From assembly GCF_055900595.2 (NCBI RefSeq), contig NZ_CM148325.1: a DNA stretch of 64,000 nucleotides. One strand, written 5' to 3'. The translations under genes and the position numbers were made by a program. Each line of letters begins with the position of its first letter. Position 1 is the first letter of the stretch. Below, one piece after another: positions 1 to 54,579 of the stretch. Under the pieces are notes generated by a model. The model saw only the letters and a list, made by a program, of their open reading frames with translations, searched no databases and was not told where the DNA came from.

Positions 1-105
1 GGTTTCGGTCTTGGTTTTGAACGCCTGATTGCTTACGTAACTGGCGTGCAAAACGTGCGTGATGTGATTCCGTTCCCACGTACTCCGCGTAACGCCAGCT
101 TCTAA
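1..105 (+). CDS. asnS: asparaginyl-tRNA synthetase, 3' end (partial)
   Basis: Frame-1 translation from position 1 gives [34 protein letters not shown] then stop, which I recognise as the AsnRS C-terminus; asnS-ompF-aspC synteny. Confidence 0.85.
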
Positions 106-116
106 TTTAGCGTCTT

Positions 117-147
117 CAAGAGCCAGCGCCCGCTGGCTCTTTTTTTA
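117..147 (+). terminator. rho-independent terminator after asnS
   Basis: GC-rich inverted repeat AGAGCCAGCG/CGCTGGCTCT followed by a T7 run. Confidence 0.6.
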
Positions 148-479
148 TCCTTTCTGTCAAGTTATCTGTTTGTTAAGTCAAGCAATCTATTTGCAACCCC
201 GCCATAACGATCATCCTGTTACGGAATATTACACTGCAACATTTGCGCACAAAAAATAATCCGCATTCTTATTGCGGATTAGTTTTTTCTTAGCTGATAG
301 CACAATTTTCATACTATTTTTTGGCGTTCTGGATGTCTGAACGAGGATTTATTGCCAGGTCGATAAAGTTTCCATCAGAAACAAAATTTCCTTTTAGTTA
401 ATTTAAATATAAGGAAATCATATAAATAGATAAAAATTGCTGTAAATATCATCATGATTCAATGGAAATATGACGGCGT

Positions 480-706
480 TCACAAAGTTCCTTAAATTTT
501 ACTTTTAGTTACATATTTTTTCTTTTTGAAACTAAATCTTTATCTTTGTAGCACTTTCACGGTAGCGAAACGTTAGTTTGAATGGAAAGATGCCTGCAGA
601 CACATAAAGACACCAAACTCTCATCAATAGTTCCGTAAATTTTTATTGACAGAACTTATTGACGGCAGTGGCAGGTGTCATAAAAAAACCATGAGGGTAA
701 TAAATA
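480..706 (+). promoter_or_regulatory. ompF promoter and 5' UTR (OmpR-box region, MicF-targeted leader)
   Basis: Sequence TTTTCTTTTTGAAAC..AAATCTTTATCTTTGTAGCACTTTCACGG matches my memory of the ompF OmpR F1-F3 region; immediately upstream of the ompF ATG at 707. Exact site boundaries not determined. Confidence 0.55.
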
Positions 707-741
707 ATGATGAAGCGCAATATTCTGGCAGTGATCGTCCC

Positions 742-750
742 TGCTCTGTT
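742..750. repeat. 9-bp target-site duplication (left copy) TGCTCTGTT
   Basis: Identical 9-mer directly flanks both IS10 ends; 9 bp is the IS10/Tn10 duplication length. Confidence 0.85.
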
Positions 751-796
751 CTGATGAATCCCCTAATGATTTTGGTAAAAATCATTAAGTTAAGGT

Positions 797-865
797 GGAT
801 ACACATCTTGTCATATGATCAAATGGTTTCGCCAAAAATCAATAATCAGACAACAAAATGTGCGA
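797..865 (-). ncRNA. IS10 RNA-OUT antisense RNA (position inferred from known IS10 architecture)
   Basis: Placed from the known pOUT/pIN arrangement relative to the outside end and transposase start; not independently verified. Confidence 0.4.
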
Positions 866-2066
866 ACTCGATATTTTACACGACTCTCTTTACCAATTCT
901 GCCCCGAATTACACTTAAAACGACTCAACAGCTTAACGTTGGCTTGCCACGCCTTACTTGACTGTAAAACTCTCACTCTTACCGAACTTGGCCGTAACCT
1001 GCCAACCAAAGCGAGAACAAAACATAACATCAAACGAATCGACCGATTGTTAGGTAATCGTCACCTCCACAAAGAGCGACTCGCTGTATACCGTTGGCAT
1101 GCTAGCTTTATCTGTTCGGGCAATACGATGCCCATTGTACTTGTTGACTGGTCTGATATCCGTGAGCAAAAACGGCTTATGGTATTGCGAGCTTCAGTCG
1201 CACTACACGGTCGTTCTGTTACTCTTTATGAGAAAGCGTTCCCGCTTTCAGAGCAATGTTCAAAGAAAGCTCATGACCAATTTCTAGCCGACCTTGCGAG
1301 CATTCTACCGAGTAACACCACACCGCTCATTGTCAGTGATGCTGGCTTTAAAGTGCCATGGTATAAATCCGTTGAGAAGCTGGGTTGGTACTGGTTAAGT
1401 CGAGTAAGAGGAAAAGTACAATATGCAGACCTAGGAGCGGAAAACTGGAAACCTATCAGCAACTTACATGATATGTCATCTAGTCACTCAAAGACTTTAG
1501 GCTATAAGAGGCTGACTAAAAGCAATCCAATCTCATGCCAAATTCTATTGTATAAATCTCGCTCTAAAGGCCGAAAAAATCAGCGCTCGACACGGACTCA
1601 TTGTCACCACCCGTCACCTAAAATCTACTCAGCGTCGGCAAAGGAGCCATGGATTCTAGCAACTAACTTACCTGTTGAAATTCGAACACCCAAACAACTT
1701 GTTAATATCTATTCGAAGCGAATGCAGATTGAAGAAACCTTCCGAGACTTGAAAAGTCCTGCCTACGGACTAGGCCTACGCCATAGCCGAACGAGCAGCT
1801 CAGAGCGTTTTGATATCATGCTGCTAATCGCCCTGATGCTTCAACTAACATGTTGGCTTGCGGGCGTTCATGCTCAGAAACAAGGTTGGGACAAGCACTT
1901 CCAGGCTAACACAGTCAGAAATCGAAACGTACTCTCAACAGTTCGCTTAGGCATGGAAGTTTTGCGGCATTCTGGCTACACAATAACAAGGGAAGACTCA
2001 CTCGTGGCTGCAACCCTGCTTACTCAAAATCTATTCACACATGGTTACGTTTTGGGGAAATTATGA
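858..2066 (+). CDS. IS10 transposase (402 aa)
   Basis: Track [44 protein letters not shown].. matches my memory of the IS10/Tn10 transposase essentially along its length. Confidence 0.95.
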
Positions 2067-2079
2067 GGGGATCTCTCAG

Positions 2080-2088
2080 TGCTCTGTT
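2080..2088. repeat. 9-bp target-site duplication (right copy) TGCTCTGTT
   Basis: Direct repeat of 742-750 immediately after the IS10 inside end. Confidence 0.85.
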
Positions 2089-3162
2089 AGTAGCAGGTAC
2101 TGCAAACGCTGCAGAAATTTATAACAAAGATGGCAACAAAGTAGATCTGTACGGTAAAGCTGTCGGTCTGCATTATTTCTCCAAGGGTAACGGTGAAAAC
2201 AGTTACGGTGGCAATGGCGACATGACCTATGCCCGTCTTGGTTTTAAAGGGGAAACTCAAATCAATTCCGATCTGACCGGTTATGGTCAGTGGGAATATA
2301 ACTTCCAGGGTAACAACTCTGAAGGCGCTGACGCTCAAACTGGTAACAAAACCCGTCTGGCATTCGCGGGTCTTAAATACGCTGACGTTGGTTCTTTCGA
2401 TTACGGCCGTAACTACGGTGTGGTTTATGATGCACTGGGTTACACCGATATGCTGCCAGAATTTGGTGGTGACACGGCATACAGCGATGACTTCTTCGTT
2501 GGTCGTGTTGGCGGCGTTGCTACCTATCGTAACTCCAACTTCTTTGGTCTGGTTGATGGCCTGAACTTCGCTGTTCAGTACCTGGGTAAAAACGAGCGTG
2601 ACACTGCACGCCGCTCTAACGGCGACGGTGTTGGCGGTTCTATCAGCTACGAATACGAAGGCTTTGGTATCGTTGGTGCTTATGGCGCCGCTGACCGTAC
2701 CAACCTGCAAGAAGCTCAACCTCTTGGCAACGGTAAAAAAGCTGAACAGTGGGCTACTGGTCTGAAGTATGACGCGAACAACATCTACCTGGCAGCGAAC
2801 TACGGTGAAACCCGTAACGCTACGCCGATCACTAATAAATTTACAAACATCAGCGGCTTCGCCAACAAAACGCAAGATGTTCTGTTAGTTGCGCAATACC
2901 AGTTCGATTTCGGTCTGCGTCCGTCCATCGCTTACACCAAATCTAAAGCGAAAGACGTAGAAGGTATCGGTGATGTTGATCTGGTGAACTACTTTGAAGT
3001 GGGCGCAACCTACTACTTCAACAAAAACATGTCCACCTATGTTGACTACATCATCAACCAGATCGATTCTGACAACAAACTGGGCGTAGGTTCAGACGAC
3101 ACCGTTGCTGTGGGTATCGTTTACCAGTTCTAATAGCACACCTCTTTGTTAAATGCCGAAAA

Positions 3163-3190
3163 AACAGGACTTTGGTCCTGTTTTTTTTAT
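3163..3190 (+). terminator. rho-independent terminator after ompF
   Basis: CAGGAC-TTTG-GTCCTG hairpin followed by a T8 run. Confidence 0.65.
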
Positions 3191-3317
3191 GCCTTCCAGA
3201 GCAATCTCACGTCTTGCAAAAACAGCCTGCGTTTTCATCAGTAATAGTTGGAATTTTGTAAATCTCCCGTTACCCTGATAGCGGACTTCCCTTCTGTAAC
3301 CATAATGGAACCTCGTC

Positions 3318-4508
3318 ATGTTTGAGAACATTACCGCCGCTCCTGCCGACCCGATTCTGGGCCTGGCCGATCTGTTTCGTGCCGATGAACGTCCCGGCAA
3401 AATTAACCTCGGGATTGGTGTCTATAAAGATGAGACGGGCAAAACCCCGGTACTGACCAGCGTGAAAAAGGCTGAACAGTATCTGCTCGAAAATGAAACC
3501 ACCAAAAATTACCTCGGCATTGACGGCATCCCTGAATTTGGTCGCTGCACTCAGGAACTGCTGTTTGGTAAAGGTAGCGCCCTGATCAATGACAAACGTG
3601 CTCGCACGGCACAGACTCCGGGTGGCACTGGCGCACTACGCGTGGCTGCCGATTTCCTGGCAAAAAATACCAGCGTTAAGCGTGTGTGGGTGAGCAACCC
3701 AAGCTGGCCGAACCATAAGAGCGTCTTTAACTCTGCAGGTCTGGAAGTTCGTGAATACGCTTATTATGATGCGGAAAATCACACCCTTGACTTCGATGCA
3801 CTGATTAACAGCCTGAACGAAGCTCAGGCTGGCGACGTAGTGCTGTTCCATGGCTGCTGCCATAACCCAACCGGTATCGACCCTACGCTGGAACAATGGC
3901 AGACACTGGCACAACTTTCCGTTGAGAAAGGCTGGTTACCGCTGTTTGACTTCGCGTACCAGGGGTTTGCCCGTGGTCTGGAAGAAGATGCTGAAGGACT
4001 GCGCGCTTTCGCGGCTATGCATAAAGAGCTGATTGTTGCCAGTTCCTACTCTAAAAACTTTGGCCTGTACAACGAGCGTGTTGGCGCTTGTACTCTGGTT
4101 GCTGCTGACAGTGAGACCGTTGATCGCGCATTCAGCCAAATGAAAGCGGCGATTCGCGCTAACTACTCTAACCCACCAGCACACGGCGCTTCTGTTGTTG
4201 CCACCATCCTGAGCAACGATGCGTTACGTGCGATTTGGGAACAAGAGCTGACTGATATGCGCCAGCGTATTCAGCGTATGCGTCAGTTGTTCGTCAATAC
4301 GCTGCAGGAAAAAGGCGCAAACCGCGACTTCAGCTTTATCATCAAACAGAACGGCATGTTCTCCTTCAGTGGCCTGACAAAAGAACAAGTGCTGCGTCTG
4401 CGCGAAGAGTTTGGCGTGTATGCTGTTGCTTCTGGTCGCGTAAACGTGGCCGGGATGACACCAGATAATATGGCTCCGCTGTGCGAAGCGATTGTGGCAG
4501 TGCTGTAA
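3318..4508 (+). CDS. aspC: aspartate aminotransferase
   Basis: 396-aa [39 protein letters not shown].. recognised as AspC; synteny. Confidence 0.97.
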
Positions 4509-4521
4509 GCGTTAAAAACAA

Positions 4522-4552
4522 TGAAGCCCGCTGAAAAGCGGGCTTTTTTATG
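4522..4552. terminator. bidirectional terminator between aspC and gloC
   Basis: AAGCCCGC-TGAAAA-GCGGGCTT hairpin with T/A runs on both sides, between convergent genes. Confidence 0.65.
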
Positions 4553-4557
4553 CGCCT

Positions 4558-5205
4558 TTACCAGACGGGCATTTCGTCTTGCAGGAAGGGATTATGCAGG
4601 CGCTCATAACCAAGTGTGGATAATGGTCCGTGACCCGGAATAAATGTCACATCATCCCCCAGTGGCAGCAATTTATCTTTGATTGAAGAAATCAGTTGAT
4701 TATGATCGCCACGCGGGAAGTCACTGCGCCCTACTCCACCTTTGAAAATAACGTCGCCAGAAATCAGCAGCCTTGCCCGCTCATCAAAAAACACGACATG
4801 ACCCGGCGTATGCCCAGGGCAATGTAACACCTGTAAAGTCACATTCCCTATGCTGATGGTATCGCCTTCGTTCAGCCAACGATCTGGCGTCAGCGGCTGA
4901 CACTCTTCCAGACCAAACATACGACTTTGCGCAGGCAAGCCTTGCAGCCAGAACTCATCTTCTTTTTCCGGGCCAAAAACCGGCACGCCGTAATGTTGCG
5001 CCAGTTCCGCCGCTGCGCCAACGTGGTCCAGATGACCATGAGTCAGCAGGATCTGCATCAGTGTCAGGCCGCTGGCATCAACTTCCTGTTTGATTTTTTC
5101 CGCATCGCCGCCAGGATCGACCAGTGCGGCCAGACGGGTTTGTTCACACCAGATCAATGAACAGTTCTGGGAGAATGCGGTGACCGGAATAATACGATAG
5201 TTCAT
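4558..5205 (-). CDS. gloC: hydroxyacylglutathione hydrolase, metallo-beta-lactamase fold (YcbL)
   Basis: 215-aa ORF with THGHLDH metal-binding motif; matches K-12 YcbL as I recall it. Confidence 0.9.
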
Positions 5206-5231
5206 ACTGCCCCTGTTTCGTTAAGCGATTA

Positions 5232-5780
5232 CTACCAGTGCCGTGCTGGCCCGGTATCAATATGCACAAAGTTACTACGTGGGTAATATCCTACACCACC
5301 TGCGCGCATAGATAACGCGGCTTTGCGAATATTGCTTAACGCGATACCTTCAATGTGGAAATCCATCGCCTGGCCTTTAGTGTGATAGCTTTTCTTCGCT
5401 ACTCCACGGCTGCGGGCGCGTAGTTCATTGTTGGTATCAATGGAACGATAACCGGAAATGAGTTGCACCGGTTTGCGGGTGCCTAACAACCCTTGCAGGC
5501 GATACAACTGGTCGAATAATCCTGGGTCGATGGACTTTATTTTGTTCGCGCGGTAATCGCGGAAAAAATGGTTAAGTTTTGCCAATTCTTCCTGAATATA
5601 GCCTCTGCCATCGAAAAACTCCGCTTTGATTGACTCTCCGGTATGAAGATTATTGAGTGTCAAAATGCGCGGGCGTGGGGTAGAGAGTGTTGCAAATGCC
5701 GGGGTCGGCAGGATGGCGGCACCGAGTGCAACGCCACCAAGCGCCAGCAGTTTGCGGCGATTAGCGTCGAATTTGTCCAT
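5232..5780 (-). CDS. mepK: peptidoglycan L,D-endopeptidase MepK (YcbK), Tat-signal protein
   Basis: Track ORF 5232..5789; start moved to MDKFDANRRKLLALGGVALGAA.. (twin-arginine leader), the K-12 N-terminus. Confidence 0.88.
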   Translation of the reverse strand: MDKFDANRRKLLALGGVALGAAILPTPAFATLSTPRPRILTLNNLHTGESIKAEFFDGRGYIQEELAKLNHFFRDYRANKIKSIDPGLFDQLYRLQGLLGTRKPVQLISGYRSIDTNNELRARSRGVAKKSYHTKGQAMDFHIEGIALSNIRKAALSMRAGGVGYYPRSNFVHIDTGPARHW

Positions 5781-5960
5781 GATAATCAAGTCTACAGGTC
5801 AATGTTATCGTTTATATGCACTTCTGGCGCACAAGAGGCACCTTAACCGCCCGTAAAGCAGACGTCAAGATGACTCAACCCCAGCAGTGACGGGGGCTGC
5901 AGAGAAGCGCCCCCGATCATGCTAATTATTACGACAACTGATTTCCCCGAACTGCTTCAT

Positions 5961-7808
5961 TTACCTGATTAATTGTTCCGCTTTCGATACAATTTGCGAG
6001 CTGGATCGCGCAGGCAGATCATAATTGTAAATATCTGTACGATACTGGGTACGACCATCTGCACCAACAAAGGCCGTCAGATAGTAGAGATTCACCGGAA
6101 TCGACTGCCGAATATTGACGTAACGCGTATCGCCCTGCTTCAGCGCATCAGAAATACGTTTGTCATTCCAGCCTGCATCCTGCAACAGCATATTCGCCAG
6201 ATCGGAAGCTTTATTCACTCGTACACAGCCTGAGCTCAATGCGCGTGTATCACGCTTGAACAGATTGTGGTTCGGCGTGTCATGCAAATAAATGGCCTCT
6301 GAACTCGGCATATTGAATTTATAGCGCCCCAGCGAGTTCCGTGGGCCTGGAGCCTGCTGGAAGCGAAACGGTAAATTCGAGGCCGTGATTGTAGACCAGT
6401 CAACCTGCCATGGGTCAATCGCTTCTCTGCTGTTCCAGCCGCGCATCACCGTATAGCCATGGCTTTCGAGATATCCCGGATCGTTGCGCACTTTCGGCAG
6501 AATATCTTTGCGTGCCAGAGTTGGTGGTACGTTCCACGGCGGGTTTACCACTACGTTGTTAAGTGCACTGCTCATCATCGGCGTTTTGCGATCGGGGCGA
6601 CCGACAATGACTCGCGAATCCAGCACCTGATTGCCGTTCTGATAGTAGACCAGCGAATAGGCCGGAATGTTAACCATGATCCCGGTAGAAAGCTCTGTTG
6701 GCAGCAAGCGCAATCGCTGGATGTTGAGTGCCAACACGCCAGCACGCTGGGCGGGCGTTACGTTTAACCAGTCACGCGTTGCCGGGCCAATAGCGCCATC
6801 TGCTCCCAATCCTTGCCATGCCTGAAAACGTTTAACGGCTTCCACCAGTTCATTATCGTAGGCGGCACGAACGACAGGCGCAGGTTTACTACGAGACGTA
6901 GTTTGCTTGTCCATCGGCTTAGTTTCTGCTGTTTCAACAGTAACAGCGGATGGGCTGACTACCGCGTCAGTTGGCGTGTCATCGCCAGGTAGCGTAATTT
7001 TCGGCCCCCCATCCAACATGCCTGTGCGTTGCAATATTTCGCGCAACGCCGGTACGTCGTTACTCCACTGTCCTGGGCGCAACGTTGCTTTGCCGGTCAG
7101 TTGGGGCCACGGTTTGGTGTCACTGAGTAAGGCCAGTAAAGATTCATGCATCGCCGCATATTGCGGATGCTGCGGTGCCAGTCCTGCAACAAACGTCGGC
7201 AATTGACCTTTATCCAGCGCCAGCTGCCATTGGTTAATCACCGAGAGCGGCGGCGTGGAAAGCGCATAAGGTTTACTGCTGTATAGCCAGCGAGTGCCTT
7301 TGACTGGAATATTTGCGATGAAATGGAGATAGCCCATCATCGCATCAGAGAGCACCACATCGCGTGCCATCCCGTTAATACCAGGATCGGTCAGCAACTC
7401 TACCCATTTATTAAACTGCGGCTGGAAACCGGCAATCGCCACCTCTGCCAGCTGTTGCTGGAAGGCTTTAACAGCATCACGGTTTTCCCACATGGGTTGC
7501 ATATCGCGTGCGGCATACAACAATTGAAGCTGGTTAAGATAAACCGGCTTATAACCTGCGGGTAATTGAGATTCGATTTGCGTGCGGGCTTTTTCAGCCG
7601 CACCTTCAGGCAATGGCTGGATCCCCGCCATTATTGCCGTGGCTTGCGCCTGCGGCAGTGCCTCGCCCTGTTCACTGACAGCCACCGGGCTGTCGCCAGG
7701 GATTACTTCAGGCTCATCGGCCTGCGCATTGAACAGTGGAGCGAATGTTACGGCCAGGCACAAACTGATTGCCGACAGCCGACGACCACACATCATATTA
7801 AGCAACAT
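5961..7808 (-). CDS. ldtD: L,D-transpeptidase LdtD (YcbB)
   Basis: 615-aa [33 protein letters not shown].. with signal peptide; matches K-12 YcbB. Confidence 0.92.
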
Positions 7809-8039
7809 CCCTTGCCCCCTGTTTTTATCATACTTTGAATAGCCAGGCTGTTATTTTACGACTTGCCTGTACAACGCCAATACTCACGAAAGTATGACGA
7901 GCAAGCCTGTTACTCATCAGGCTTATCTTCAGTATATAAACGCCGATACGTTTTTACATAACCTAATGTAAAGAAGTTTAAAGAAAAGCGCGCCAGAATG
8001 TGGCACTTTTTTAGTGCAGAAACGGAGTTTTCAGAAACA

Positions 8040-8066
8040 GGAAAGGCGGCATCGCTGCCGCCTCAA
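8040..8066 (-). terminator. rho-independent terminator after mukB
   Basis: GGCGGCA-TCGC-TGCCGCC hairpin just downstream of the mukB stop with a U-rich tail on the minus-strand transcript. Confidence 0.55.
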
Positions 8067-8068
8067 TC

Positions 8069-11000
8069 TTAACTCGCCTGGGAAGGCGCTTCGTCAGTTC
8101 CTGGAAGCGTTTCAGGGAGTTGCGGTGCAAAACCACGCAGACCGACTACGTGAACGTGTTCGGTATTCTGGAAGACTTTACGCACCAGTTTATAGGTGGT
8201 GCCTTTTTCCGGGCTGATATTTTCCGGCGCTGCGATGATGAGCTGCATTTGCAAACGCTCACACAATTCAAACAGCGTGGCGATGGAACGGGCGTCCAGT
8301 CGCGCTGCTTCATCGAGGAACAGCAGGCGGCAAGGAGAGATATCTTTACCGCGCAGGCGGCGAGATTCATCTTCCCAGCTTTGTACCACCATCACCAGAA
8401 TCGACATACCGGTACCAATCGCCTCACCGGTCGACAGTGCGCCAGACTCCGCGCGCAACCAACCATCGGAACCACGGTTAACCTCAACTTCCATTTCCAG
8501 ATAGTTGCGGTAATCCAGCAGTTCTTCACCGATAGTCTGCGGCGTGCGCTGCCCCATATCAATCTGCGGGTTAAGACGTTGATACAGTTTCGCCAGCGCT
8601 TCCGAGAAGGTCAGACGGTTGCTGTTAAACAGATCCTGATGTTGTTCGTGCTGTTCAGAGAGCACATCCAGCAGCATGGCGTGCGTTTCACGCACGTTCA
8701 CGTTGAGGCGCACGCTGTTCACCTGACCGAACGATACGTTCTGCAAGCCCTGGTTGAGCATACGGATACGGTTCTGCTCGCGCTGAATGGTTTTACGGAT
8801 GATGTTCGCCACGCTGCGGGAACTGATCGCCAGTTTCTGTTCGCGGGACGTTAACTCTTCAGTCAGACGGCTAAGTTCGATCTCCATCTGCTCGATAGCT
8901 TCAACCGGATCATCGGTACGAATAATATCCTGACGAATACGCTCGCGCAGATGCTGATAAACCGCCACGAAGAACTGAATTTTACGTTCCGGACGTTTTG
9001 GATCTTCCGACATACGCAGCACGTCGCGCAGATGTTCGTTATCCGCTACCGCGAGACGCAACGCACCCAACGCCTTATCCGACATGGAACGCAAATCATC
9101 AGCGGAGAGATAAGCCAGCTCACGACGGTGTAAGCGGCGCTCAACACCGTTATCTTTCACCATGCGCATCACTGCACACCAGCCCGCTTTCGCGGTCACT
9201 ACCTGCTCGCGCATCTCAAAGTAATCACGCTCCAGCTTGCGCAGTTTGCGGGTCAGGTTGTCCATCTCCGCTTCGCAGAAGGTAAGCGCTTTTTCCAGTT
9301 GGTTGCGGCGTGAACGGTTATTGCTCAGTTGCGCGTGCAACTCGTCACGGCGAATACGCGCCCGCTCTTCTGCCCCGCTATCAGCACGCACGCCGATATC
9401 CTGCAATTCACGTTGCAGATCGTTGAGTAGCTCTTTTTTGGTGTCGTAAGAACTTTTCAGCGAAGCCAGCACCTGGTTGTACTGACTCAACTGCGCTGCG
9501 TGTCCGCGCAACGCTTCACGAGCGCGGGTACGCTCCGCTTCCGCCTGTTCCAGACGTTCACGCAGTTTTTCGTTGAGATCGCTGTTACCGCTAAGCATTT
9601 CTGCCGAGTCAGAGTAGCTAAAGTGCGCACGACGCTGCACCACTTCCGTCAGGGCAAACGCCTGCTGACGGGCATCGCGCTGCATCTGCTGAGAGTACGC
9701 GTAATCTTCTTTTAACTGTTCGAACTGTTCCGGGTCGCTCTGCAATACCGAAACGATCGGTTCCAGTTTCGCCAGTTGATTGCCAAACTGCTGAACAAAA
9801 CGCGCGGCTTCCTGGGCTTCATCCAGACGTTCGCGGATTTCATCGACGCGATCCGCCAGGCTGTCATCAGCCAACAGGTTGAGACGCGGCAGAATGCGGT
9901 TCAGCGCCGTAACGCCCTCTTTCGCCTGCTCAAACTGAATACGCTGCTGCTGGTTATCATTTTCATGATTACTCAACGCCCGCTCCAGTTCGACGCGACG
10001 GCTGTTCAGTTGACGGATTTCTGCTTCCGGATCAGACTCAAACGCTACCGCCAGATGGCTACCAATAAAGCGGCTGAACGCCTGATGCAGACGCTGGGTT
10101 TTCTGTACATCAAAGGAGAGCGTGGCGAAGCGTTCGGAAAGCACTTCACGTTCCGCATGGAGGCTTTCAATACGGCTTTCACGCGCAGCACGACCAAACA
10201 GCGGCACTTCCGGGAAACGTGAATAACGCCACTGACGATCGGCGATTTTCACCACTACCGCTTTTTCCAGCTCATCAACGCTGAACACGCTATCATCGAA
10301 TGACTGCGGATCCCCTTCGATCAGATAGAGATCTTCCGGGCAATCGGTCAAGCCTTCCAGATGCTCGGTTACCTGTGACAGGTCCGGCACCACGATAGCG
10401 TGGCGTGACGGGCCGTACAACGCCGAGAAGTACGGCGCATCTTCCAGGCTAACGTCGTCATAAATTTCTGACAGCAGCACGCCGCCAAAACGCTCCGCCA
10501 GCGCATTCAGACGCTGATCTTCAGAGCCGCCAGGCTGGCTTAAACGTTCGATCTCTTCATCGACGGCGTTTTTGCGTGCGCCAACTTCGTCACGTTCAAC
10601 AATCGCTTCGCGCTCACGCTCAAGCAACTGTTGCAGATATTCGGTGACATCCTGGCTGGAGGTGAACTCTTCGCCGCACTGTTCGCTCAACTGGTTGAGA
10701 CTGTTTTGCGCTGCCAGCCAAACCGGCGCACGCTGCATCAAACTCTGAATGCGAGACTGCAGCTGTTCCTGCTCCTGGCGCAGTGCCATCCGCTCTTCTC
10801 GGGCGTTAGAGACGCTATCGGAAAGAGAGGCAATGCGTGCTTCCAGCTCCTGATGCAGAGCTTCCAGTTCATCAATATCAAAATTCTTGCCCTGACGTTT
10901 GCAGAAATCTGCCAGCAGACGCTCAGCTTCTTGCTGTTCACGCAGACGCTGTTCCAGTTCGCTTAAGCGCATCCGCAACGGCTGAACCTGCTCTGCCAGG

Positions 11001-22270: not shown

Positions 22271-24535
22271 CTACCCGTTATCCACTGGCACGCCAAACCA
22301 CTGATGATACCAACGAGGTAAAATTTGCTCTCTGAGGCTGCTAATCCGCCAGCCTTGCGCTGAAAAATTGACCGTTATTTGACCCTGATGTGGAGTATCG
22401 AGCCACTTATAACCCTGTTGTTGATAGCGATGTTTAACTTTGCTTGAGGGCAGTCGCCATGCGTTATAGCGCGATGCCGATGCGAGTGCCACTTTTCCAT
22501 TCACTCGCTGAATTAATGGCAACGATGATGAGGTATTACTGCCATGGTGAGGTACCTGAAGTAATGTTGCTTGTACTTGCTGCCAGTAACGGCTTAGCAT
22601 CTTTTGTTCAGCGGGGGCTTCAATATCACCGGTTAGGAGAATGCTATTCGTCCCGTCATCAACCTTAACCACACAGGAATGGTTATTTCCTTTATCGTTG
22701 CTACCTTGTAAAGGCCAGTGCACGCTGAAACGCAATCCTTGCCATTGCCACGCTTCGCCACGCACACAGGGCTGATGATGTTCCCAGCTTAAAGGGCTTC
22801 TGACCCATAACGTCGGCCAGGCTCGTAATATCGAGTCCAGCCCTCCCCGATGATCCAGATGTTCATGACTCAAAATGACGCCTTCTGGTTCAAGATTATG
22901 CCAGCGTAGCCAGGGGATAATCAGTTGTTGCCCACTATCCCCCTCCGGCCAGGCCAGTCCGGTGTCATAGAGAATCGCTTTACCGTTTCTGGCTATCACC
23001 ATTGCCAGCCCTTGCCCGACATCAAGCATGTACACCTGCCACGCGTCAGGTCGAGTTTTTTGCCACAGCGGCCAGCACATCAGCAAGCCTCCAGCCACAC
23101 ACATTGCCGGCAACGCTCGCCAGGCGTTTAATCGCCATACCACCAGTAAGAACCATGGGGAAAATGATAGCCATTGCCAACGTTCAGCAATGTTGATCCA
23201 CCCTTCCGGCAAACTCTTTAACCCCCAGAAAAGTAAAGCCAAAGACCGGTCGGCAAGAAACCATACTCCTTGCTCCACGATTAACGGCCCGCTTAAATGC
23301 ATAACCATCGCTGCGAGGATCAACGGAACCGTGATAAATGTCACCAGGGGAATTGCAAATAGGTTTGCAATAAACGAGGTCAGACTAATGCCATGAAATA
23401 TGACGATTTGCACAGGCATTAGCAGGAGCGTGATTCCCAGTTGTAGATGGATGAGGGCAACAACCGCGCGCAATACTGGCGGCAGTTGCCACTCCGGACA
23501 GGGAAACCACTGATACCAAAAAATCAGCGCCGCTACCGCAGCGGCAGAGAGCCATAAACTTTGCGAAAGAATGGCAACAGGATCCATCAGCAAAATTGCC
23601 GCCAGACAACATATCCATACATCCCAGCCACTCCATTGTCGTCCACTTAACTTAAGCATTCCCCAAATGGCAAGCGCCACCACGGTACGCAATGCAGGAG
23701 GTTGCATTCCCGTTAGCCAGGCATAAAAAGCAGCACAGCAGATTCCGCCAATTAATGGCATTTGCCAGTGGATCCAGCACCCAGGCAGAAAAACTTGCCC
23801 ACCGCGAATGAGTCCTGCAGCCAGCAACGCCGCAAAAGCGATGTGCAATCCTGATATCGCCATTAAATGCGCCGTTCCAGTATCACGCATGATATTTTTG
23901 ATTTCTTTGGGGACGGATAACCGTTCCCCCATACCTAATCCAAGAATAACCGCGTTCCACATATAGGGTTGCAGCGTTGTTTGTAGTGACGCCAGATACT
24001 GTGCACGCAGGCTACAATTCGGTTCAATGACACTTGCCTGCAGAAAACGGCCGGTGAGCGGTTGATGCTGGGCAATGGCATAACGCTGGCTATCAAAGCC
24101 GCCATCATTAAGTTGACCATGAACTGCACGAACTTTGAGTTTCATTGACCATACTTGTCCGGCACAAACCGCTTGCGGAAGATATTCGCCATACAGTACG
24201 AGGCCTGGCGCAGGGAATATACGTCGACCTTGTAGATGAGTAATTTGACCGTAATGAGTGGTCATGCCGTCAGTAGCAATGATCTCAACAATTGCATCCT
24301 GCGTCGAGCCAGTTAAGGTTTCTCCTGCCCACAAAATTTGCTTTGCTGCTAATATGCCCCAAACGAAAAACAGCAACGTCAGCGCGATATAACGGACGGT
24401 TTTAACAGGGATAAATGCCAGTACACAGGCGAAGATAGTCAGAAGCGCAAGGGTTACTGTCCCTGGCAATTGGGGCAAAATCAGCAACGGAAAAATTCCG
24501 CAAATTATGCATACTCCGACTGTCGTTATTTTCAT
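22271..24535 (-). CDS. ycaI: ComEC-family inner membrane protein YcaI
   Basis: Track ORF 22271..24565; start set at MKITTVGVCIICGIFPLL.. (K-12 N-terminus); polytopic membrane domain plus C-terminal metallo-beta-lactamase-like domain. Confidence 0.88.
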   Translation of the reverse strand: MKITTVGVCIICGIFPLLILPQLPGTVTLALLTIFACVLAFIPVKTVRYIALTLLFFVWGILAAKQILWAGETLTGSTQDAIVEIIATDGMTTHYGQITHLQGRRIFPAPGLVLYGEYLPQAVCAGQVWSMKLKVRAVHGQLNDGGFDSQRYAIAQHQPLTGRFLQASVIEPNCSLRAQYLASLQTTLQPYMWNAVILGLGMGERLSVPKEIKNIMRDTGTAHLMAISGLHIAFAALLAAGLIRGGQVFLPGCWIHWQMPLIGGICCAAFYAWLTGMQPPALRTVVALAIWGMLKLSGRQWSGWDVWICCLAAILLMDPVAILSQSLWLSAAAVAALIFWYQWFPCPEWQLPPVLRAVVALIHLQLGITLLLMPVQIVIFHGISLTSFIANLFAIPLVTFITVPLILAAMVMHLSGPLIVEQGVWFLADRSLALLFWGLKSLPEGWINIAERWQWLSFSPWFLLVVWRLNAWRALPAMCVAGGLLMCWPLWQKTRPDAWQVYMLDVGQGLAMVIARNGKAILYDTGLAWPEGDSGQQLIIPWLRWHNLEPEGVILSHEHLDHRGGLDSILRAWPTLWVRSPLSWEHHQPCVRGEAWQWQGLRFSVHWPLQGSNDKGNNHSCVVKVDDGTNSILLTGDIEAPAEQKMLSRYWQQVQATLLQVPHHGSNTSSSLPLIQRVNGKVALASASRYNAWRLPSSKVKHRYQQQGYKWLDTPHQGQITVNFSAQGWRISSLREQILPRWYHQWFGVPVDNG

Positions 24536-28589: not shown

Positions 28590-28757
28590 GTGAATCATCC
28601 GTTGATTAATCATATATAAATATTATGTATCAATAACTTACATCGACAAACGACGCTATCATTAATCAAAATGACTCACAAGGTCCGAAAAAAAACGCCG
28701 GCAATGTGCCGACGTTTTGATAAAGAAAGATTTGGCTATTTATTGCACGTTGTTCAT

Positions 28758-48080: not shown

Positions 48081-48192
48081 AGGGAGACAAAAAAAGCGCC
48101 CGCAGGAGATTTAACGGTACTTACTCCTCTTGCTGATTTCCTTATTTTTCAATAAGTAAACAAAAACAAGGGGAGCAAATTATCACAAATAA

Positions 48193-49197
48193 TTACTGGT
48201 CGATGGACAGTTTATGGACACTTTCAGCCAGCGGATTAAAGCTGATCGCATCCTGTAAAAAGTCCGGTGAAAAATGCGCATACGTCATCGTTTGCTGAAT
48301 CGTGGCGTGACCCAGGATCCTCTGCAACGTGACGATGTTCCCGCCGTTCATCATGAAATGCGTGGCGAACGTGTGCCGCATGACATGCGTGGCCTGCCCT
48401 TTGGGTAAGTCGGGCTTCACCTCCTGAAGGATCTCCCTGAAACTGAGATAATCAACCTGATATAACAGGCCGGTCCGGCGGGTTTTAATTAACGGCACAA
48501 CGGAATCAGCTACAGGAACCGAGCGCGATTTCCCGTTCTTTGTGTTAAAGAACGTCACCCTGTTACCCACGATGTGTTCCCCGCGAAGCGTTGACGCCTC
48601 TTTCCATCTGGCCCCGGTCGAAAGGCACAGAATGGCAATGCGTCGTGCATCACCCTCAAGCCGTTTCAGAAGGCGATCAATCTCGTCATCTGAAAGAAAG
48701 GCCATTTCTGTATTCTGAACCTTGAGTTTACGTATTCCGCGCACAGGGTTTTCGTTATGATAAACCTCCGCGTCAATTAACAACGAAAACATCGCAGATA
48801 AGGCGCACAGGTCGCGATTGATACTGGACGGCATCAGTCCCGCCTGCAACTTATCCGAGCGATACTCAATCACGAATTTTCGTGTCATCTGGCTGGCGCG
48901 CGGGTCCCCCATTTCACGTATCACCTTCTCCAGTCTGGTTCTGTAGGTATCACCATATGCCTGATTACGACCATCAAGCATCCACCACACCTCAATCAGT
49001 TCTGATAACCGCCGTTGATCGGCGGGCCTTGCCTGCCACGGGTTATTGTGGAAATTCTGAAGAACGTATCTTTCGAATTCCTGCGCCTTTGATTTCAGGG
49101 TGAAAATCTTACGAATCCGCCTTCCTCCCGCCCCCTGAGGCCTTACATCAACCTGATAACGTCCGTCTTTGAGTTGCTTAATCGACATGATCAGCAC
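48193..49197 (-). CDS. int: P2-family tyrosine integrase
   Basis: 334-aa ORF; KQLKDGRYQVDVRP.., AILCLSTGARW.. and ATHVMRHTFATHFMMNGGNIVTLQRILGHATIQQTMTYAHF resemble P2 Int as I remember it. Confidence 0.92.
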   Translation of the reverse strand: MLIMSIKQLKDGRYQVDVRPQGAGGRRIRKIFTLKSKAQEFERYVLQNFHNNPWQARPADQRRLSELIEVWWMLDGRNQAYGDTYRTRLEKVIREMGDPRASQMTRKFVIEYRSDKLQAGLMPSSINRDLCALSAMFSLLIDAEVYHNENPVRGIRKLKVQNTEMAFLSDDEIDRLLKRLEGDARRIAILCLSTGARWKEASTLRGEHIVGNRVTFFNTKNGKSRSVPVADSVVPLIKTRRTGLLYQVDYLSFREILQEVKPDLPKGQATHVMRHTFATHFMMNGGNIVTLQRILGHATIQQTMTYAHFSPDFLQDAISFNPLAESVHKLSIDQ

Positions 49198-49257
49198 CTC
49201 CGACGGATAAACCTGTTAACCCCTGCTTACTGAACGCCGCCCGTTCAATATACAGCG

Positions 49258-49599
49258 TCAGCCAGCATTGCGGCCTGATTGGGGTGATTTTTGGGTATTG
49301 CGGGTTGAAACCTGATCGTCCTCCGACTGCGTGGAGCCATCAAGAGAGAGAGCCGGGGCGATCTGACCGGCAACAGGTAGCGTCTTATCTTTGATTAGCC
49401 AGAACATATATTTTTCAAACCGATCCACTTGAAGGACGGCCTCAACAATCTTTGCTCTGGCGATCTTTTGCCCTGACTCATAATTCCTGACAGTTGCCAG
49501 AGATAACCCTGTAATATCAGCAAATTGCTTTTGAGTTAGCCCTTCCGTCTTGCGTATCAAACGCAACTTTTTCGCATAGTCTATTGACAAGATACTCAT
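49258..49599 (-). CDS. CI/C-type immunity repressor (HTH)
   Basis: 113-aa ORF; HTH LTQKQFADITGLSLATVRNYESG and C-terminal ..QIAPAL.. resemble the P2 C repressor; divergent from cox; SD AGGAG upstream. Confidence 0.8.
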   Translation of the reverse strand: MSILSIDYAKKLRLIRKTEGLTQKQFADITGLSLATVRNYESGQKIARAKIVEAVLQVDRFEKYMFWLIKDKTLPVAGQIAPALSLDGSTQSEDDQVSTRNTQKSPQSGRNAG

Positions 49600-49702
49600 T
49601 TGGGGATTAATCTCCTACAAAAGATAACCGTACGATTATCTTTACAAGTCATCAAAAATCATCAAAAGGCGCAACAAGCGCACCAATGCAAGAGGATAAC
49701 AA
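49600..49702. promoter_or_regulatory. repressor/cox divergent promoter-operator region
   Basis: Contains an 18-bp near-palindrome GATAACCGTACGATTATC (about 49623-49640) and tandem TCATCAAAA direct repeats (about 49649-49667) between divergent regulatory genes. Confidence 0.5.
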
Positions 49703-50224
49703 ATGCGGGAGATTATTGCCGACAAAGAGTTATCTGGCGCTCAACCGGTTCAGGATGATGGCGCGGACAATGAATTCATTGAAGCTGCCAACGACAACGA
49801 ACACCTGGAAACCAAAACCAGACCGTCCTACAAAAAGGGCGCAACCCTACGACTGGACGGCCCAGTCGCAGGACTTGTGTCACTGGAAAAAGGGGCTGCC
49901 TATCTGGGGGTAACAAAATCTGCGCTACGCGCCGCCATTCAGCGCGGGCAGATGCCGGGTCACAAAACGCGCTCAAATCCCGAAGATGAAAAGTCAGACG
50001 GTACATGGTGGTTTAACGCCAAAGCCTGGGACGAACTAGCCGACGAACTACTGGAGTGCGAACCGCCAGAGTGGCACAACTGGAAAAGCTACTGGACGTA
50101 CGACCGCAAGAAAAGAAAGTTTTCACCGGCAAACAAGGAGGACTGCCAGACCGTTAAAGGTAAGCAGGTTTACTCCCCCAGAGTTTCAAAACTGGAGCAA
50201 CTCAAAAACAACCAGCCCGGCTAA
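49703..50224 (+). CDS. Cox/excisionase-like DNA-binding protein (long form, 173 aa)
   Basis: ATG with SD AAGAGGA; central HTH-like segment AAYLGVTKSALRAAIQRGQMPG followed by W-rich segment resembling the Cox fold; the N-terminal 55 aa are extra relative to about 90-aa Cox proteins, so the true start may be internal. Confidence 0.55.
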   Translation: MREIIADKELSGAQPVQDDGADNEFIEAANDNEHLETKTRPSYKKGATLRLDGPVAGLVSLEKGAAYLGVTKSALRAAIQRGQMPGHKTRSNPEDEKSDGTWWFNAKAWDELADELLECEPPEWHNWKSYWTYDRKKRKFSPANKEDCQTVKGKQVYSPRVSKLEQLKNNQPG

Positions 50225-50232
50225 ACACGAAA

Positions 50233-50439
50233 ATGACCAGCAATATCATCAATGCCGTTTTGAACATTATATTCCTGGAATTAGGCGTAGTGGTGATTTA
50301 TCTGCTTGGCAAGCTAACAGGACAAAAAGAACGTTTTATTGTCCTCAACGTTCATTACGTCGCAGCTTATTCTAAAGGGCTTTTTCCAATAGTTGTTGGC
50401 GCGGGACTTACAGCGTTTGTCATCTGGCTCATCAGGTAG
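50233..50439 (+). CDS. small hydrophobic membrane protein (68 aa, 2 predicted TM)
   Basis: ORF MTSNIINAVLNIIFLELGVVVIYLLGKL..FPIVVGAGLTAFVIWLIR; weak SD, 8 nt after cox-like stop. Confidence 0.4.
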   Translation: MTSNIINAVLNIIFLELGVVVIYLLGKLTGQKERFIVLNVHYVAAYSKGLFPIVVGAGLTAFVIWLIR

Positions 50440-50721
50440 AGGCACACAACGTAATCATTCGTAGCTATATTTCCGCAATAGTATTCAAGTAAAGGAAGAC
50501 AACAACATGAAACCAAGACAAAGATTAACCTCCAGAAGTAGTGACGCATTGCACTTTAAAGCAAAAGACATAATAGCCACAACAAAGGTAGGAGCATAAG
50601 TCTATATACACTTTCAGAATTTCTATCTGGAGAGAACATTAAAAACGGAAGAGGAAGCCAATGAGTATTTGTTATTCATGAAAGATTGCATAGAAGGAAA
50701 AATAAGCGCAGGAGATAAATA

Positions 50722-51030
50722 ATGCGAAAACATTATTCACAGCCACATTTCCGCAACAGTGCACCACGCAGCAATAACCGCTGGAGCCTGCGCGAAACAC
50801 ACGCAACGCCGGGCGGTCATGCTGTAAAACAGACTGGTCAACACACCTGGCTGATTGAGCAGGCCGGACTCGTGATCCACAGATGCCACCGCAATCCGTT
50901 TACCGGAAACCGCATTTTTGCACTGAGCAGCGGCGACAATCAGTTCGGACAGGATTTCACACTGCACGAAGCCTTGCGAACTGCCGACCGCTTAATCGAG
51001 GGGCGCAGCTTTCAGCATACCGACTACTAA
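50722..51030 (+). CDS. hypothetical early-region protein (102 aa)
   Basis: ORF with strong SD (GCAGGAGATAAATA-ATG); competing antisense ORF 50737..50967 lacks an SD. Confidence 0.5.
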   Translation: MRKHYSQPHFRNSAPRSNNRWSLRETHATPGGHAVKQTGQHTWLIEQAGLVIHRCHRNPFTGNRIFALSSGDNQFGQDFTLHEALRTADRLIEGRSFQHTDY

Positions 51031-51068
51031 GGCAAAAGGAGTCTTAATAAGACAGAAGAGGCAGCAAG

Positions 51069-51311
51069 ATGAAAAGAGCCTATAAAGAACTCATTAACGA
51101 CGCGCTTCAGAATTACCATTACGGACTTACAAGCCGTGGCACTAACGGTGACGCTGTTTCACTTGCAGCACTGACTACAGCAATCAAGGGCCTGACCTGT
51201 TGCGCCTTTGGTTCCGGAGATAATGAAGCTCTGACGGAATTACAGGCCATTAATAAAGACCTGTCTGAAGGAAACGTAATAACCCCCTTTGTAATTCAGG
51301 AGGAAGCATGA
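51069..51311 (+). CDS. hypothetical early-region protein (80 aa)
   Basis: ORF MKRAYKELINDALQNYHYGL.. with SD GAAGAGG upstream. Confidence 0.5.
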   Translation: MKRAYKELINDALQNYHYGLTSRGTNGDAVSLAALTTAIKGLTCCAFGSGDNEALTELQAINKDLSEGNVITPFVIQEEA

Positions 51312-51433
51312 GCGTATTTATGTCATGGTTAATTCTTATCCTTGCCATTATTTGCGCTGTGGAGATTATGCGGGTAATTAACAGCATTAACACCATTGAA
51401 TCGTTATTTACTGGCGATAAGCGCCGTAAATAA
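51308..51433 (+). CDS. putative 41-aa membrane peptide
   Basis: ATGA overlap with the preceding stop; MSVFMSWLILILAIICAVEIMRVINSINTIESLFTGDKRRK; below the ORF-track size cutoff, found by reading the sequence. Confidence 0.3.
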   Translation: MSVFMSWLILILAIICAVEIMRVINSINTIESLFTGDKRRK

Positions 51434-51513
51434 ACAGGCGTTTAACACCAGAAACAACCAGAAACATCCGCTCACGCGGAGGGGTTGACCCGCTCAAAAA
51501 GGAGAAATCAGGA

Positions 51514-51807
51514 ATGCTTAATAATAAAAAAAACCGAATCATTGATAACAGTGAACAGGTCAACAAAATAATCGAAGGCACAAACAAATTAATTAAGAAA
51601 AAAAACAAACTAAGCCGTGAATTAATGGAACATCCGGAAGAAATATTATTAGCCATGATGCACCAGACAGAAGCGATAGCCATCGCCCTTGCCGTGCAGG
51701 CGCTTTCTGAGTTCCGGGAAGAAAACATCAGGCTGGCTCAGGAGCTGAAAAACCTCAGACGTCAGCTTCAGAGCACTGAGGCTGGCACGTCATCACGAAT
51801 ACACTGA
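51514..51807 (+). CDS. hypothetical coiled-coil early-region protein (97 aa)
   Basis: ORF with SD AAAAGGAGAAATCAGGA-ATG; Lys/Asn-rich N-terminus then amphipathic helix. Confidence 0.5.
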   Translation: MLNNKKNRIIDNSEQVNKIIEGTNKLIKKKNKLSRELMEHPEEILLAMMHQTEAIAIALAVQALSEFREENIRLAQELKNLRRQLQSTEAGTSSRIH

Positions 51808-51817
51808 GGGCCACACC

Positions 51818-52027
51818 ATGACTGCAATTCTGAGAAGACGCAATAAAACGCTTTTTACCGATACATCCGGGATGGAATACGAAGTGGAAAGCAGTGTCAT
51901 CGCCACCACCACCCGATGCCCGGCAGGTGACGAACTGATTTACGTCCACCTGACGGACGGGTCACAGATAACCGTCCTGACAGAGTCATGGCGCGAACTC
52001 GAGATAATAAGCGAGGTAAGAACATGA
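51818..52027 (+). CDS. hypothetical early-region protein (69 aa)
   Basis: ORF MTAILRRRNKTLFTDTSGMEYEVESSV.. in the co-oriented string of early genes. Confidence 0.45.
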   Translation: MTAILRRRNKTLFTDTSGMEYEVESSVIATTTRCPAGDELIYVHLTDGSQITVLTESWRELEIISEVRT

Positions 52028-52236
52028 GCAGCAAACACGATACCAACGCACGCAGACCAGGCAAAGAGGCGCGTCACCATATCGCCGTAATGCGCAACCT
52101 GCTTATGAGTGAAATCGACGATTTTGTGGCAGGCCTGGGGCAACCGGGCGAACCAGCAACACCAGGCCAGATACACAGGGAATTACGCCGCCGCGTGGAA
52201 AACGTCGTGGATTACGTCATAAACCCGAACGACTGA
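52024..52236 (+). CDS. hypothetical early-region protein (70 aa)
   Basis: Internal ATG of track ORF 51988..52236 overlapping the preceding stop (ATGA); MSSKHDTNARRPGKEARHHIAVMRNLLMSEIDDF.. Confidence 0.45.
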   Translation: MSSKHDTNARRPGKEARHHIAVMRNLLMSEIDDFVAGLGQPGEPATPGQIHRELRRRVENVVDYVINPND

Positions 52237-52275
52237 CGGGAACATGGCGAGCGTCAGATGACACACGCAGGGCAC

Positions 52276-52758
52276 TTATCGGGAAAAACCGATCGTAATG
52301 GCAGCCATCATCTTTTCAGCGAAAGAGAGAGATTCACGATGACTGATATTCAGAGACATACAGGCTTTGTTGTACGCCACATTTTCCATGCATTCCAGGA
52401 CAGGAGAGTCATGCATCTCAAGCTCTGGAAGGCGTGCCAGCAGAGCTTCCGTACTGAGGAGGGCGCTTTTGGTAATCAACTCATTGTAGCGATGGGCATG
52501 CTCACTCGCCGCCTGCGCACGTTGCCCGAAACGACATATGAAATTACAGGCTCCGAGAACCACCACCACTGCCCCAAGCACCCAGCCGAAATGCCAGCCG
52601 GCTACGATGAACGCACCCGCCGCAAGGATCAAAATGTTGATGATCGCATCAAGGCGACGATTGAATACCGCCGCGATGCGCTCCAGCCAGTAGCTGTACC
52701 AGAGACGGAACATGACCTCATCCCGTTCTCTCGATTTTTTACGTTGGTTGTTTTGCAT
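52276..52758 (-). CDS. reverse-oriented two-TM membrane protein (160 aa), candidate moron
   Basis: Minus-strand ORF with paired hydrophobic helices (AIINILILAAGAFIVAGW / FGWVLGAVVVVLGACNFICRF) flanked by basic residues, SD GAGGG upstream; the overlapping plus-strand ORF 52258..52893 is His/Arg-rich and looks non-coding. Confidence 0.45.
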   Translation of the reverse strand: MQNNQRKKSRERDEVMFRLWYSYWLERIAAVFNRRLDAIINILILAAGAFIVAGWHFGWVLGAVVVVLGACNFICRFGQRAQAASEHAHRYNELITKSALLSTEALLARLPELEMHDSPVLECMENVAYNKACMSLNISHRESLSFAEKMMAAITIGFSR

Positions 52759-52992
52759 GGTGTTTTATCCCTCATCGTCATCGCTCTGCCCCTAATCAGC
52801 GCAGAGTGCAGGGTAACCTGGCTCGTGGAATTTTTGCAGCCAGACATCTTTACCCCCGGGCGTGTTGAACAAAGTGTCCGCCAGATCCACTGAACGGCGG
52901 ATTCATCAATGCTAACACGCCCTTCTTTTCCGGTTGAAGGCGAAAAAACCGGACCATTACCCCGACACAAAACAGAACAACGGAGAACAACT

Positions 52993-53547
52993 ATGCCCGC
53001 ACTTAAACCTATGGGTGTATCAGGTGTACCACCGAAGCATGTCAGAGCCTGGACACAACAGGAAGATGCTCTACTGGTCGGTTTATACCCCTCCCACACC
53101 GTACCAGAACTGACAAAACACTTTCAGAGAACCGGGCCAGCAATACGAAGCCGCATCCGTCTTTTGCTCTCTCAGGGGGTTATCCACACCAAACAACCCC
53201 CCCTGAATACAAAAGAACTCAACACGCTCATCAGGAATCGCCACACAAAAACCATCCGGGAACTCGCGAATGAACTGGGGCGCTCGACATCCACGGTGGG
53301 ACTGAACCTGAGAAAAAGAGGGTACCGGTTCAGGAAATACGGGGAACTCCACCACAGAGCCAGATACAGCGATCACCTGGTGGAGTTGGTAACTGAACTG
53401 CGCGATGAACAGGGGATGACATTCAGCGAAATCAGAAAGTACATCCGGGACACGGCCGGGATATCCCTTAAAAGATGGGTCCTCGCCCGGCTTTACGCAC
53501 GATATACCGCCGCTGACACCGTGCTTTGCGAACTGCTACCGGACTGA
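52993..53547 (+). CDS. putative DNA-binding protein with repeated HTH-like segments (184 aa)
   Basis: Internal ATG of track ORF 52909..53547 with SD ACGGAG; segments ..TIRELANELGRSTSTVGLNLRKRG.. and ..MTFSEIRKYIRDTAGISLKRW.. look HTH-like. Confidence 0.5.
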   Translation: MPALKPMGVSGVPPKHVRAWTQQEDALLVGLYPSHTVPELTKHFQRTGPAIRSRIRLLLSQGVIHTKQPPLNTKELNTLIRNRHTKTIRELANELGRSTSTVGLNLRKRGYRFRKYGELHHRARYSDHLVELVTELRDEQGMTFSEIRKYIRDTAGISLKRWVLARLYARYTAADTVLCELLPD

Positions 53548-53637
53548 GTAACCACTATGCACACACAAAAAAACCGCTTGCCATGCCGCAATCAGTCAGG
53601 TTACATTTCCGCTGCACCTCATAAAACGGGTGCCGGG

Positions 53638-53854
53638 ATTGCAACCCCCGCTGACAACTACAGCGCACAACCGCGCCAGCGGTTTTTTTGTGCGTACCGT
53701 ATCGCCACGTCTTTTTCGCGCCAGAATTATGGCGGGGCGTATGGGGCCGACTTCGGTCGGGCCGGTTTCTGTAGTTGCCGGTGGTTGCAACCCTGTACGT
53801 CTCGCCACCCAGAATTGCAACCTCTGGATGGTGAGTTTTCAAAACTTGCAACTA
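53638..53854. repeat. cluster of four (A/G/C)TTGCAAC(C/T) repeats with a UUCG-loop hairpin
   Basis: ATTGCAACC (about 53638), GTTGCAACC (about 53784), ATTGCAACC (about 53814), CTTGCAACT (about 53845); hairpin GGCCGAC-TTCG-GTCGGGCC at about 53745-53763. Confidence 0.5.
53669..53689 (+). terminator. rho-independent terminator
   Basis: CCGCGCC-A-GCGG stem followed by a T7 run, downstream of the 52993..53547 gene. Confidence 0.55.
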
Positions 53855-53867
53855 CAGAGGCCACACC

Positions 53868-54092: not shown

Positions 54093-54160
54093 TCAACATC
54101 CCGGAGCCATCCCGCCCCCGTACGCGGGAGGCTTCCGCACGTCCGTTTCCGGAGGTTCTC

Positions 54161-54574: not shown

Positions 54575-54579
54575 GCGGA

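Follow-up and report, generated by a model that had tools for sequence, protein, structure and literature searches.

The IS10-Right and IS10-Left copies of Tn10 on plasmid R100, together with the element annotated as ISVsa5, are the closest described relatives of the insertion sequence reported here, and are like it in length, in their terminal repeats, in a 402-aa transposase and in a 9-bp target duplication. The R100 copies belong to Tn10, whereas the copy described below is solitary and mosaic. Insertion of IS10 into a porin gene has been reported in carbapenem-resistant Klebsiella pneumoniae, in which porin loss followed from IS10 in ompK36 (PMC6340961); this is the same class of event, with the same expected effect on permeability, but in another gene and another species.

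Within E. coli, the laboratory strain ET12567 (K-12, dam/dcm, NZ_CP045457.1) carries IS10 in ompF at the same target and in the same orientation as here, with a 1329-bp element and a 356-aa hybrid open reading frame (ORF) that is annotated as ompF, 'porin OmpF', but its background and its IS10 variant are unlike ours. The clinical isolates 3985 (Houston, blood), 613 (Taiwan, sputum), 571 and 774 have the target and its duplication as found here, but with IS10 turned the other way, the outside end facing the remainder of ompF; in 3985 the leader of the resulting hybrid, MILIKIIRGFIS..., is unlike the one described below.

The DNA analysed here is a stretch of 64,000 nucleotides, referred to in its entirety as the window, and its ompF gene is interrupted by IS10. 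The complete element entered ompF by simple transposition and duplicated 9 bp of target. That this single event left a cell deficient in OmpF, or nearly so, is probable, the phenotype being predicted from the DNA. The host background is that of a natural, non-K-12 E. coli.

Anatomy of the interrupted locus

The features of the locus are listed below with their window coordinates and, where one applies, their strand.

1-105 (+): asnS, 3' end only; this gene lies next to ompF on its upstream side, and the segment is collinear with the annotated gene of ET12567, E400634 and Z0117EC0005
106-706 (+): asnS-ompF spacer with the ompF promoter, OmpR-binding region and 5' UTR, unrearranged relative to the closest relatives
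707-3133 (+): interrupted ompF, from the ATG at 707 to the TAA stop at 3131-3133, read directly from the sequence
707-750 (+): 5' fragment of ompF, 44 nt, comprising codons 1-14 and two bases of codon 15
742-750: left copy of the target-site duplication, TGCTCTGTT, abutting the outside end exactly
751-2079 (+): IS10 (ISVsa5-type, IS4 family), 1329 bp, identified by its terminal repeats and near-identity to the R100 copies
751-773 (+): outside-end repeat, CTGATGAATCCCCTAATGATTTT, an exact match to the IS10 end pattern
858-2066 (+): IS10 transposase gene, 402 aa, uninterrupted, from the ORF list and a profile match
2057-2079 (-): inside-end repeat, matching the IS10 end pattern with one mismatch
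2080-2088: right copy of the target-site duplication, TGCTCTGTT, abutting the inside end exactly
2080-3133 (+): 3' fragment of ompF, with the rest of the signal sequence and the whole mature porin

The native start of ompF reads ATGATGAAGCGC at 707. IS10 lies with its outside end at 751 and its inside end at 2079, where the 3' terminus of the element reads ...GGGGATCTCTCAG, and its transposase gene runs in the same direction as ompF. A degenerate end pattern run over the whole window gave two matches in 64 kb, against none expected by chance, and a 9-bp match between the sequences at the two fixed flanking positions would arise by chance with a probability of about 4e-6. An initial annotation of this DNA had proposed a full-length IS10 in ompF flanked by 9-bp direct repeats, and this is borne out by both ends, by the length of 1329 bp and by TGCTCTGTT on each side. 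It had placed the split after codon 14; the junction in fact follows nt 44, two bases into codon 15, and the duplication takes in the last base of codon 12, codons 13 and 14, and the first two bases of codon 15. The PCR product of about 2.4 kb that it foresaw across ompF agrees with the computed length (1089 + 1338 = 2427 bp).

Reading from the native ATG, the frame is no longer uninterrupted and now encodes a 15-aa peptide, MMKRNILAVIVPALF, that stops at a TGA at 752-754. By comparison with the intact loci of relatives, the 3' fragment of ompF is free of further mutations. The transposase matched the NCBIfam model NF033591 (IS4 family transposase) with 402 bits (cut-off 152) and is the same protein as that of the gltS-side copy on R100, whose coding sequence is annotated WP_001352368.1, "ISVsa5". 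The element is complete and, judging from its intact ends and gene, apparently functional.

The empty site was reconstructed by joining window positions 1-750 to 2089-4300. The 2962 bases obtained showed one mismatch, at 533, to the intact loci of E400634 and Z0117EC0005, each of which has a single copy of TGCTCTGTT. Translation of the rejoined gene gives the 362-aa OmpF of these relatives, and the gene equals the ompF coding sequence of E400634 that is annotated WP_000977917.1. Both flanks were also compared with eight complete E. coli genomes in which ompF is intact. The right flank (window 2080-9000, 6.9 kb) was 100% identical to the relatives' loci and the left flank 99.9% identical; the four closest complete genomes were E400634, AST85, 100117 and Z0117EC0005. 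The gene order asnS-ompF-aspC-gloC is normal, as in annotated genomes. The rejoined flanks reproduce the empty site of the relatives and so show that the transposition was clean, without deletion or rearrangement. The simple transposition that had been proposed for this locus is thus upheld, since removal of the IS and one repeat gives the relatives' intact locus, one SNP apart. The IS10-ompF junction on this background was found in none of 5426 complete E. coli genomes.

The single mismatch lies in the asnS-ompF spacer, whose 601 bp otherwise equal those of the nearest relatives: at 533 the window has T and they have C. All eight closest genomes differ from the window at this position, which we take to lie in OmpR box F2 (about 520-539), TTCTTTTTGAAAC[C/T]AAATCT. 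However, a 53-nt query for which megablast seeding was possible only in T-allele genomes matched 2133 of 5426 complete E. coli genomes, O157:H7 strains included, and in 1840 the match reached at least 99% identity. Since the allele is so widely carried, 533 T is a common natural variant and not damage, and a private promoter mutation, as a second hit on ompF, was rejected on this count and on that of the lineage-specific positions given below. The view that the upstream promoter and OmpR region are intact therefore holds, the spacer being unrearranged and its one difference a common allele.

Against all four of the relatives examined, the window has 13 lineage-specific positions in 46.8 kb. 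One of these, 24359 (C in the window, T in the relatives), lies in ycaI (ComEC family; 22271-24535, minus strand), which the window has as an intact ORF of 754 codons and which E400634, AST85, 100117 and Z0117EC0005 carry as an annotated pseudogene containing an internal stop. At about 28687-28693, Z0117EC0005 has an extra segment of about 0.7 kb, annotated with an IS200/IS605 transposase gene, in the interval from aroA to ycaL. This segment is missing from the window and from the other relatives, and an A-run at 28687 shows a 1-bp length difference. The homology of the closest relatives to the window ends at 48106, the border of a P2-like prophage that lies between dmsA and serS, occupies 48107-64000 and runs off the window end. 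This prophage has an integrase-sized ORF at 48193-49197 (minus strand), its matches in other genomes are annotated as replication endonuclease, portal, terminase and GPO scaffold, and prophage and junction are 100% identical in Ch1, TUM1886 and B771, among others.

The IS10 variant and its relation to Tn10

Compared with the two copies on R100 (NC_002134.1), the IS10 in the window has 4 differences from the gltS-side one and 11 from the tetD-side one (99.2-99.7% identity); the best plasmid copies are 99.9% identical to it. It is a mosaic of the two, as nt 24-47 of the element follow the tetD-side copy (IS10-Right) and nt 83-1300 the gltS-side copy (IS10-Left/ISVsa5 type), while nt 904-1248 show no differences from either. 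Other strains with IS10 at this ompF site have copies of a different mosaic composition. Compared as sequences, these differing mosaics at one site suggest that recombination between IS10 variants may be frequent.

No second IS10 was found in the 64-kb window by the end-pattern scan, and no match to the 6.5-kb interior of the R100 Tn10 was found within the window. The arrangement that defines composite Tn10, two inverted IS10 copies bracketing tetR/tetA and the jem genes, is accordingly not present in the window. A Tn10 arm or a composite transposon was rejected for the window on these grounds, namely one IS10 and no Tn10-internal sequence. Of the Tn10 that the initial annotation supposed the strain to carry, or once to have carried, the window shows no trace beyond this IS10.

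Recurrent use of the 9-bp target

IS10 sits at the TGCTCTGTT site of ompF in no fewer than four backgrounds besides that of the window, and both orientations occur. With a junction query, ET12567 was found to share the TGCTCTGTT target, its duplication and the orientation seen in the window. Its sequence shows 22 differences from the window in the 640-bp left flank, 12 in the 1100-bp right flank and 10 within IS10, and because both the flanks and the IS10 variant differ, the insertion in ET12567 is independent of that in the window. A synthetic query with the IS reversed matched the same junction in strains 3985, 613, 571 and 774. The junctions of 3985 and 613 were inspected and have TGCTCTGTT on both sides, and 571 and 774 match the query as single pieces; 3985 and 613 share their flanks, and their IS10 copies differ at 15 positions. 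An exact-protein look-up with the hybrid ORF of the window returned one draft contig, from GCA_002468335.1. This contig has an IS10-Right-type inside end and, with 73 differences from the window in 6167 positions, comes from a different strain.

A survey of complete E. coli genomes with 1.2-kb junction queries found IS10 in or just upstream of ompF in ten, five per orientation, and in half of the ten the insertion is at the TGCTCTGTT site. The other sites inspected were +469 (OW968124, with OW967975 as a matching row), +91 (TUM14759) and -142 (201609); the tenth genome, EC11, entered this tally with its insertion point uninspected. Counted by lineage, with the window and the draft contig included, the TGCTCTGTT site accounts for about 5 of 9 ompF::IS10 events. 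Look-up tables place the ET12567-type hybrid protein on 6 contigs; the corresponding figures are 21 for the 613-type and 2 for the 3985-type. The junctions of the window allele can be followed with the k-mers GTCCCTGCTCTGTTCTGATGAATCCCC and GTCCCTGCTCTGTTCTGAGAGATCCCC.

In a further draft assembly (GCA_025049455.1, DAJAZU010000020.1, positions 1-4071) we observed an IS10-ompF hybrid junction of the ET12567 type in which fimbrial usher and subunit genes stand upstream of the IS, replacing asnS and the 5' end of ompF. The order of genes on this contig suggests an IS10-mediated rearrangement, and from this junction, with its fimbrial genes upstream, it would appear that rearrangements at an ompF IS10 do occur.

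The relaxed IS10 target consensus NRCNNNGYN, as quoted in PMC4574204, is fitted fully by TGCTCTGTT. Of the six core positions of the classic consensus GCTNAGC (NGCTNAGCN), it matches four. Across ompF and its promoter 41 sites score at least 4/6 for the IS10 core and five score 5/6, and none of the inspected ompF insertions is at any of these five. A match to the core consensus alone therefore fails to explain the hot spot, since the better-scoring sites are unused and the used site scores 4/6. Hot spots of IS10 are set by sequence context beyond the core. The likeliest explanation for the recurrence of TGCTCTGTT is a target preference of IS10, that is, a local hot spot, from which selection is inseparable with these data. 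A literature search of incomplete coverage returned no description of IS10 at this ompF site or of a hot spot there. Because the site is hit recurrently, sharing of this allele by two strains is not evidence of their common descent.

Possible residual OmpF and expected consequences of the allele

Three readings other than a single knock-out transposition were weighed, two of which concern the structure of the locus. It is very improbable that the junction is an assembly artefact, in which an IS10 from elsewhere was misplaced into ompF and the real locus is intact. Repeats commonly cause misassembly, IS10 is often multicopy in E. coli, and up to 45 places per genome match the ompF-IS10 junction query. 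However, an assembler error would not make a perfect 9-bp duplication at both exact IS termini, and the arrangement recurs in several genomes that were sequenced independently. A larger structure, either an arm of Tn10 or another composite element or else a product of IS10-mediated rearrangement, is less credible again and can be given hardly any weight. It could draw on the fact that IS10 flanks Tn10, and on the junction in GCA_025049455.1 with fimbrial genes in place of asnS upstream. What flanks the element in the window is nevertheless a single ompF gene cut in two, standing between asnS and aspC as usual, with one IS10 and no Tn10-internal sequence, and for the window this reading is refuted by the empty-site join.

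The remaining reading concerns expression, and holds that the allele still yields some porin from the following features.

2063-3133 (+): hybrid ORF, 356 aa, with its ATG in the inside end of IS10 and in frame with ompF codons 13-362
1750-1980 (+): IS10 nt 1000-1230, the segment reported to hold the promoters pIII and OUTIIp, placed as cited in PMC11481808 and reading towards the inside end and the ompF remainder
4946-6034 of the 3985 locus: hybrid ORF, 362 aa, with an in-frame ATG, named porin OmpF in RefSeq
4396-5484 of the 613 locus: ORF of the same length as the 362-aa ORF of 3985

The ATG at 2063 overlaps the stop codon of the transposase gene (ttATGAgggg). It opens a hybrid with a 16-residue leader followed by mature OmpF (AEIYNK...), in which the native signal-peptidase site between ANA and AE is kept. 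The hybrid scored 764 bits against the NCBIfam porin OmpF equivalog NF007446 (cut-off 583) and is identical to the public 'porin OmpF' WP_096965701.1. On the proposed route, transcripts that arise within IS10 or read through it would reach this ATG, and the hybrid would be exported by Sec and cleaved between ANA and AE, which we regard as unlikely. The candidate sources of such transcripts are read-out from pIN, the reported pIII and OUTIIp promoters, and read-through from the ompF promoter. Mature OmpF would then be present in small amounts, independently of OmpR and MicF, an outcome to be expected with equally little confidence.

Several features of the sequence are consistent with this. The ORF is in frame and retains the cleavage site, and its ATG is preceded by an SD-like GGGG with a predicted anti-SD pairing of -5.5 kcal/mol, against -6.1 kcal/mol for native ompF. 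That GGGG is, however, paired in a hairpin in the predicted local RNA fold, in the MFE and centroid structures alike. The hydrophobic core of the hybrid leader (Kyte-Doolittle 2.25 for the 8-mer and 1.91 for the 10-mer) is on a level with that of MalE (2.25 and 1.92), whose signal peptide had the lowest core hydrophobicity among the natural ones compared; against this, the leader has only 16 residues and a single positive charge. Translation of the IS10 transposase is normally very low, and for this reason coupling through the ATGA overlap should yield little product.

As to transcription, promoters reading outward at both ends of IS10 have been reported (PMC4574204, PMC11481808). The pIII and OUTIIp promoters in IS10 nt 1000-1230, which face the inside end, are described in these papers as able to drive adjacent genes, and polarity of IS10/Tn10 is reported there to be incomplete; over this segment the element in the window is free of differences from both R100 copies. 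A simple consensus scan of the plus strand for promoters and terminators, which is too crude to count either way, gave nothing useful. On the other hand, transcripts arriving from the ompF promoter would presumably be prone to termination by Rho over 1.2 kb of poorly translated sequence. The insertion in strain 3985, of opposite orientation, also yields an in-frame leader, but being in frame in both orientations is expected about once in nine by chance and is unremarkable.

In the 3985 and 613 types the outside end of IS10, in which we take the pOUT promoter to lie, faces the gene. Because of this presumed placement, these alleles would be better candidates for residual expression than that of the window. 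One may imagine from this a porin 'dimmer', in which a low, IS10-driven supply of OmpF escapes OmpR and MicF and is selectable over a full knock-out under antibiotics; we consider this distinctly improbable, more so than residual expression as such. The idea starts from the observation that in either orientation the IS end supplies a start codon in frame with the remaining half of the signal peptide, and it would give the recurrence of TGCTCTGTT a cause beyond target preference.

The preferred reading is accordingly a knock-out by simple transposition. A single cut-and-paste event put IS10 into the signal-sequence coding part of ompF and duplicated TGCTCTGTT. All that the native start codon now yields, with its promoter, OmpR sites and 5' UTR, is the 15-residue peptide, and 348 of the 362 codons follow only after 1.3 kb, beyond a transposase gene that is poorly translated. 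Since the native start is cut off from these codons, the normal synthesis of OmpF under OmpR and MicF control is lost, and the allele is probably null or nearly null. The description of the allele as a 'clean OmpF-null' is thus apt in that a strong loss of function is the likeliest state, but 'clean' overstates it in view of the in-frame ATG at 2063 and the reported promoters.

Loss of OmpF lowers the permeability of the cell to beta-lactams and small hydrophilic drugs and makes it resistant to OmpF-dependent colicins and phages, and this would be the expected phenotype. As ompF is monocistronic with its own terminator, the downstream aspC should be unaffected.

The event in the window is an ordinary and known kind of porin knock-out, and this type of allele is already present in public genomes. 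The hybrid ORFs that result are labelled there as an intact "porin OmpF", as in WP_096965701.1, the ompF coding sequence of ET12567 and WP_259429169.1. Because annotation names the hybrid as if it were intact, predictions of porin status and of carbapenem and cephalosporin permeability from genotype can miss the disruption. As about half of the ompF::IS10 alleles found share one site, one PCR assay or k-mer directed at the junction would pick up most such alleles.
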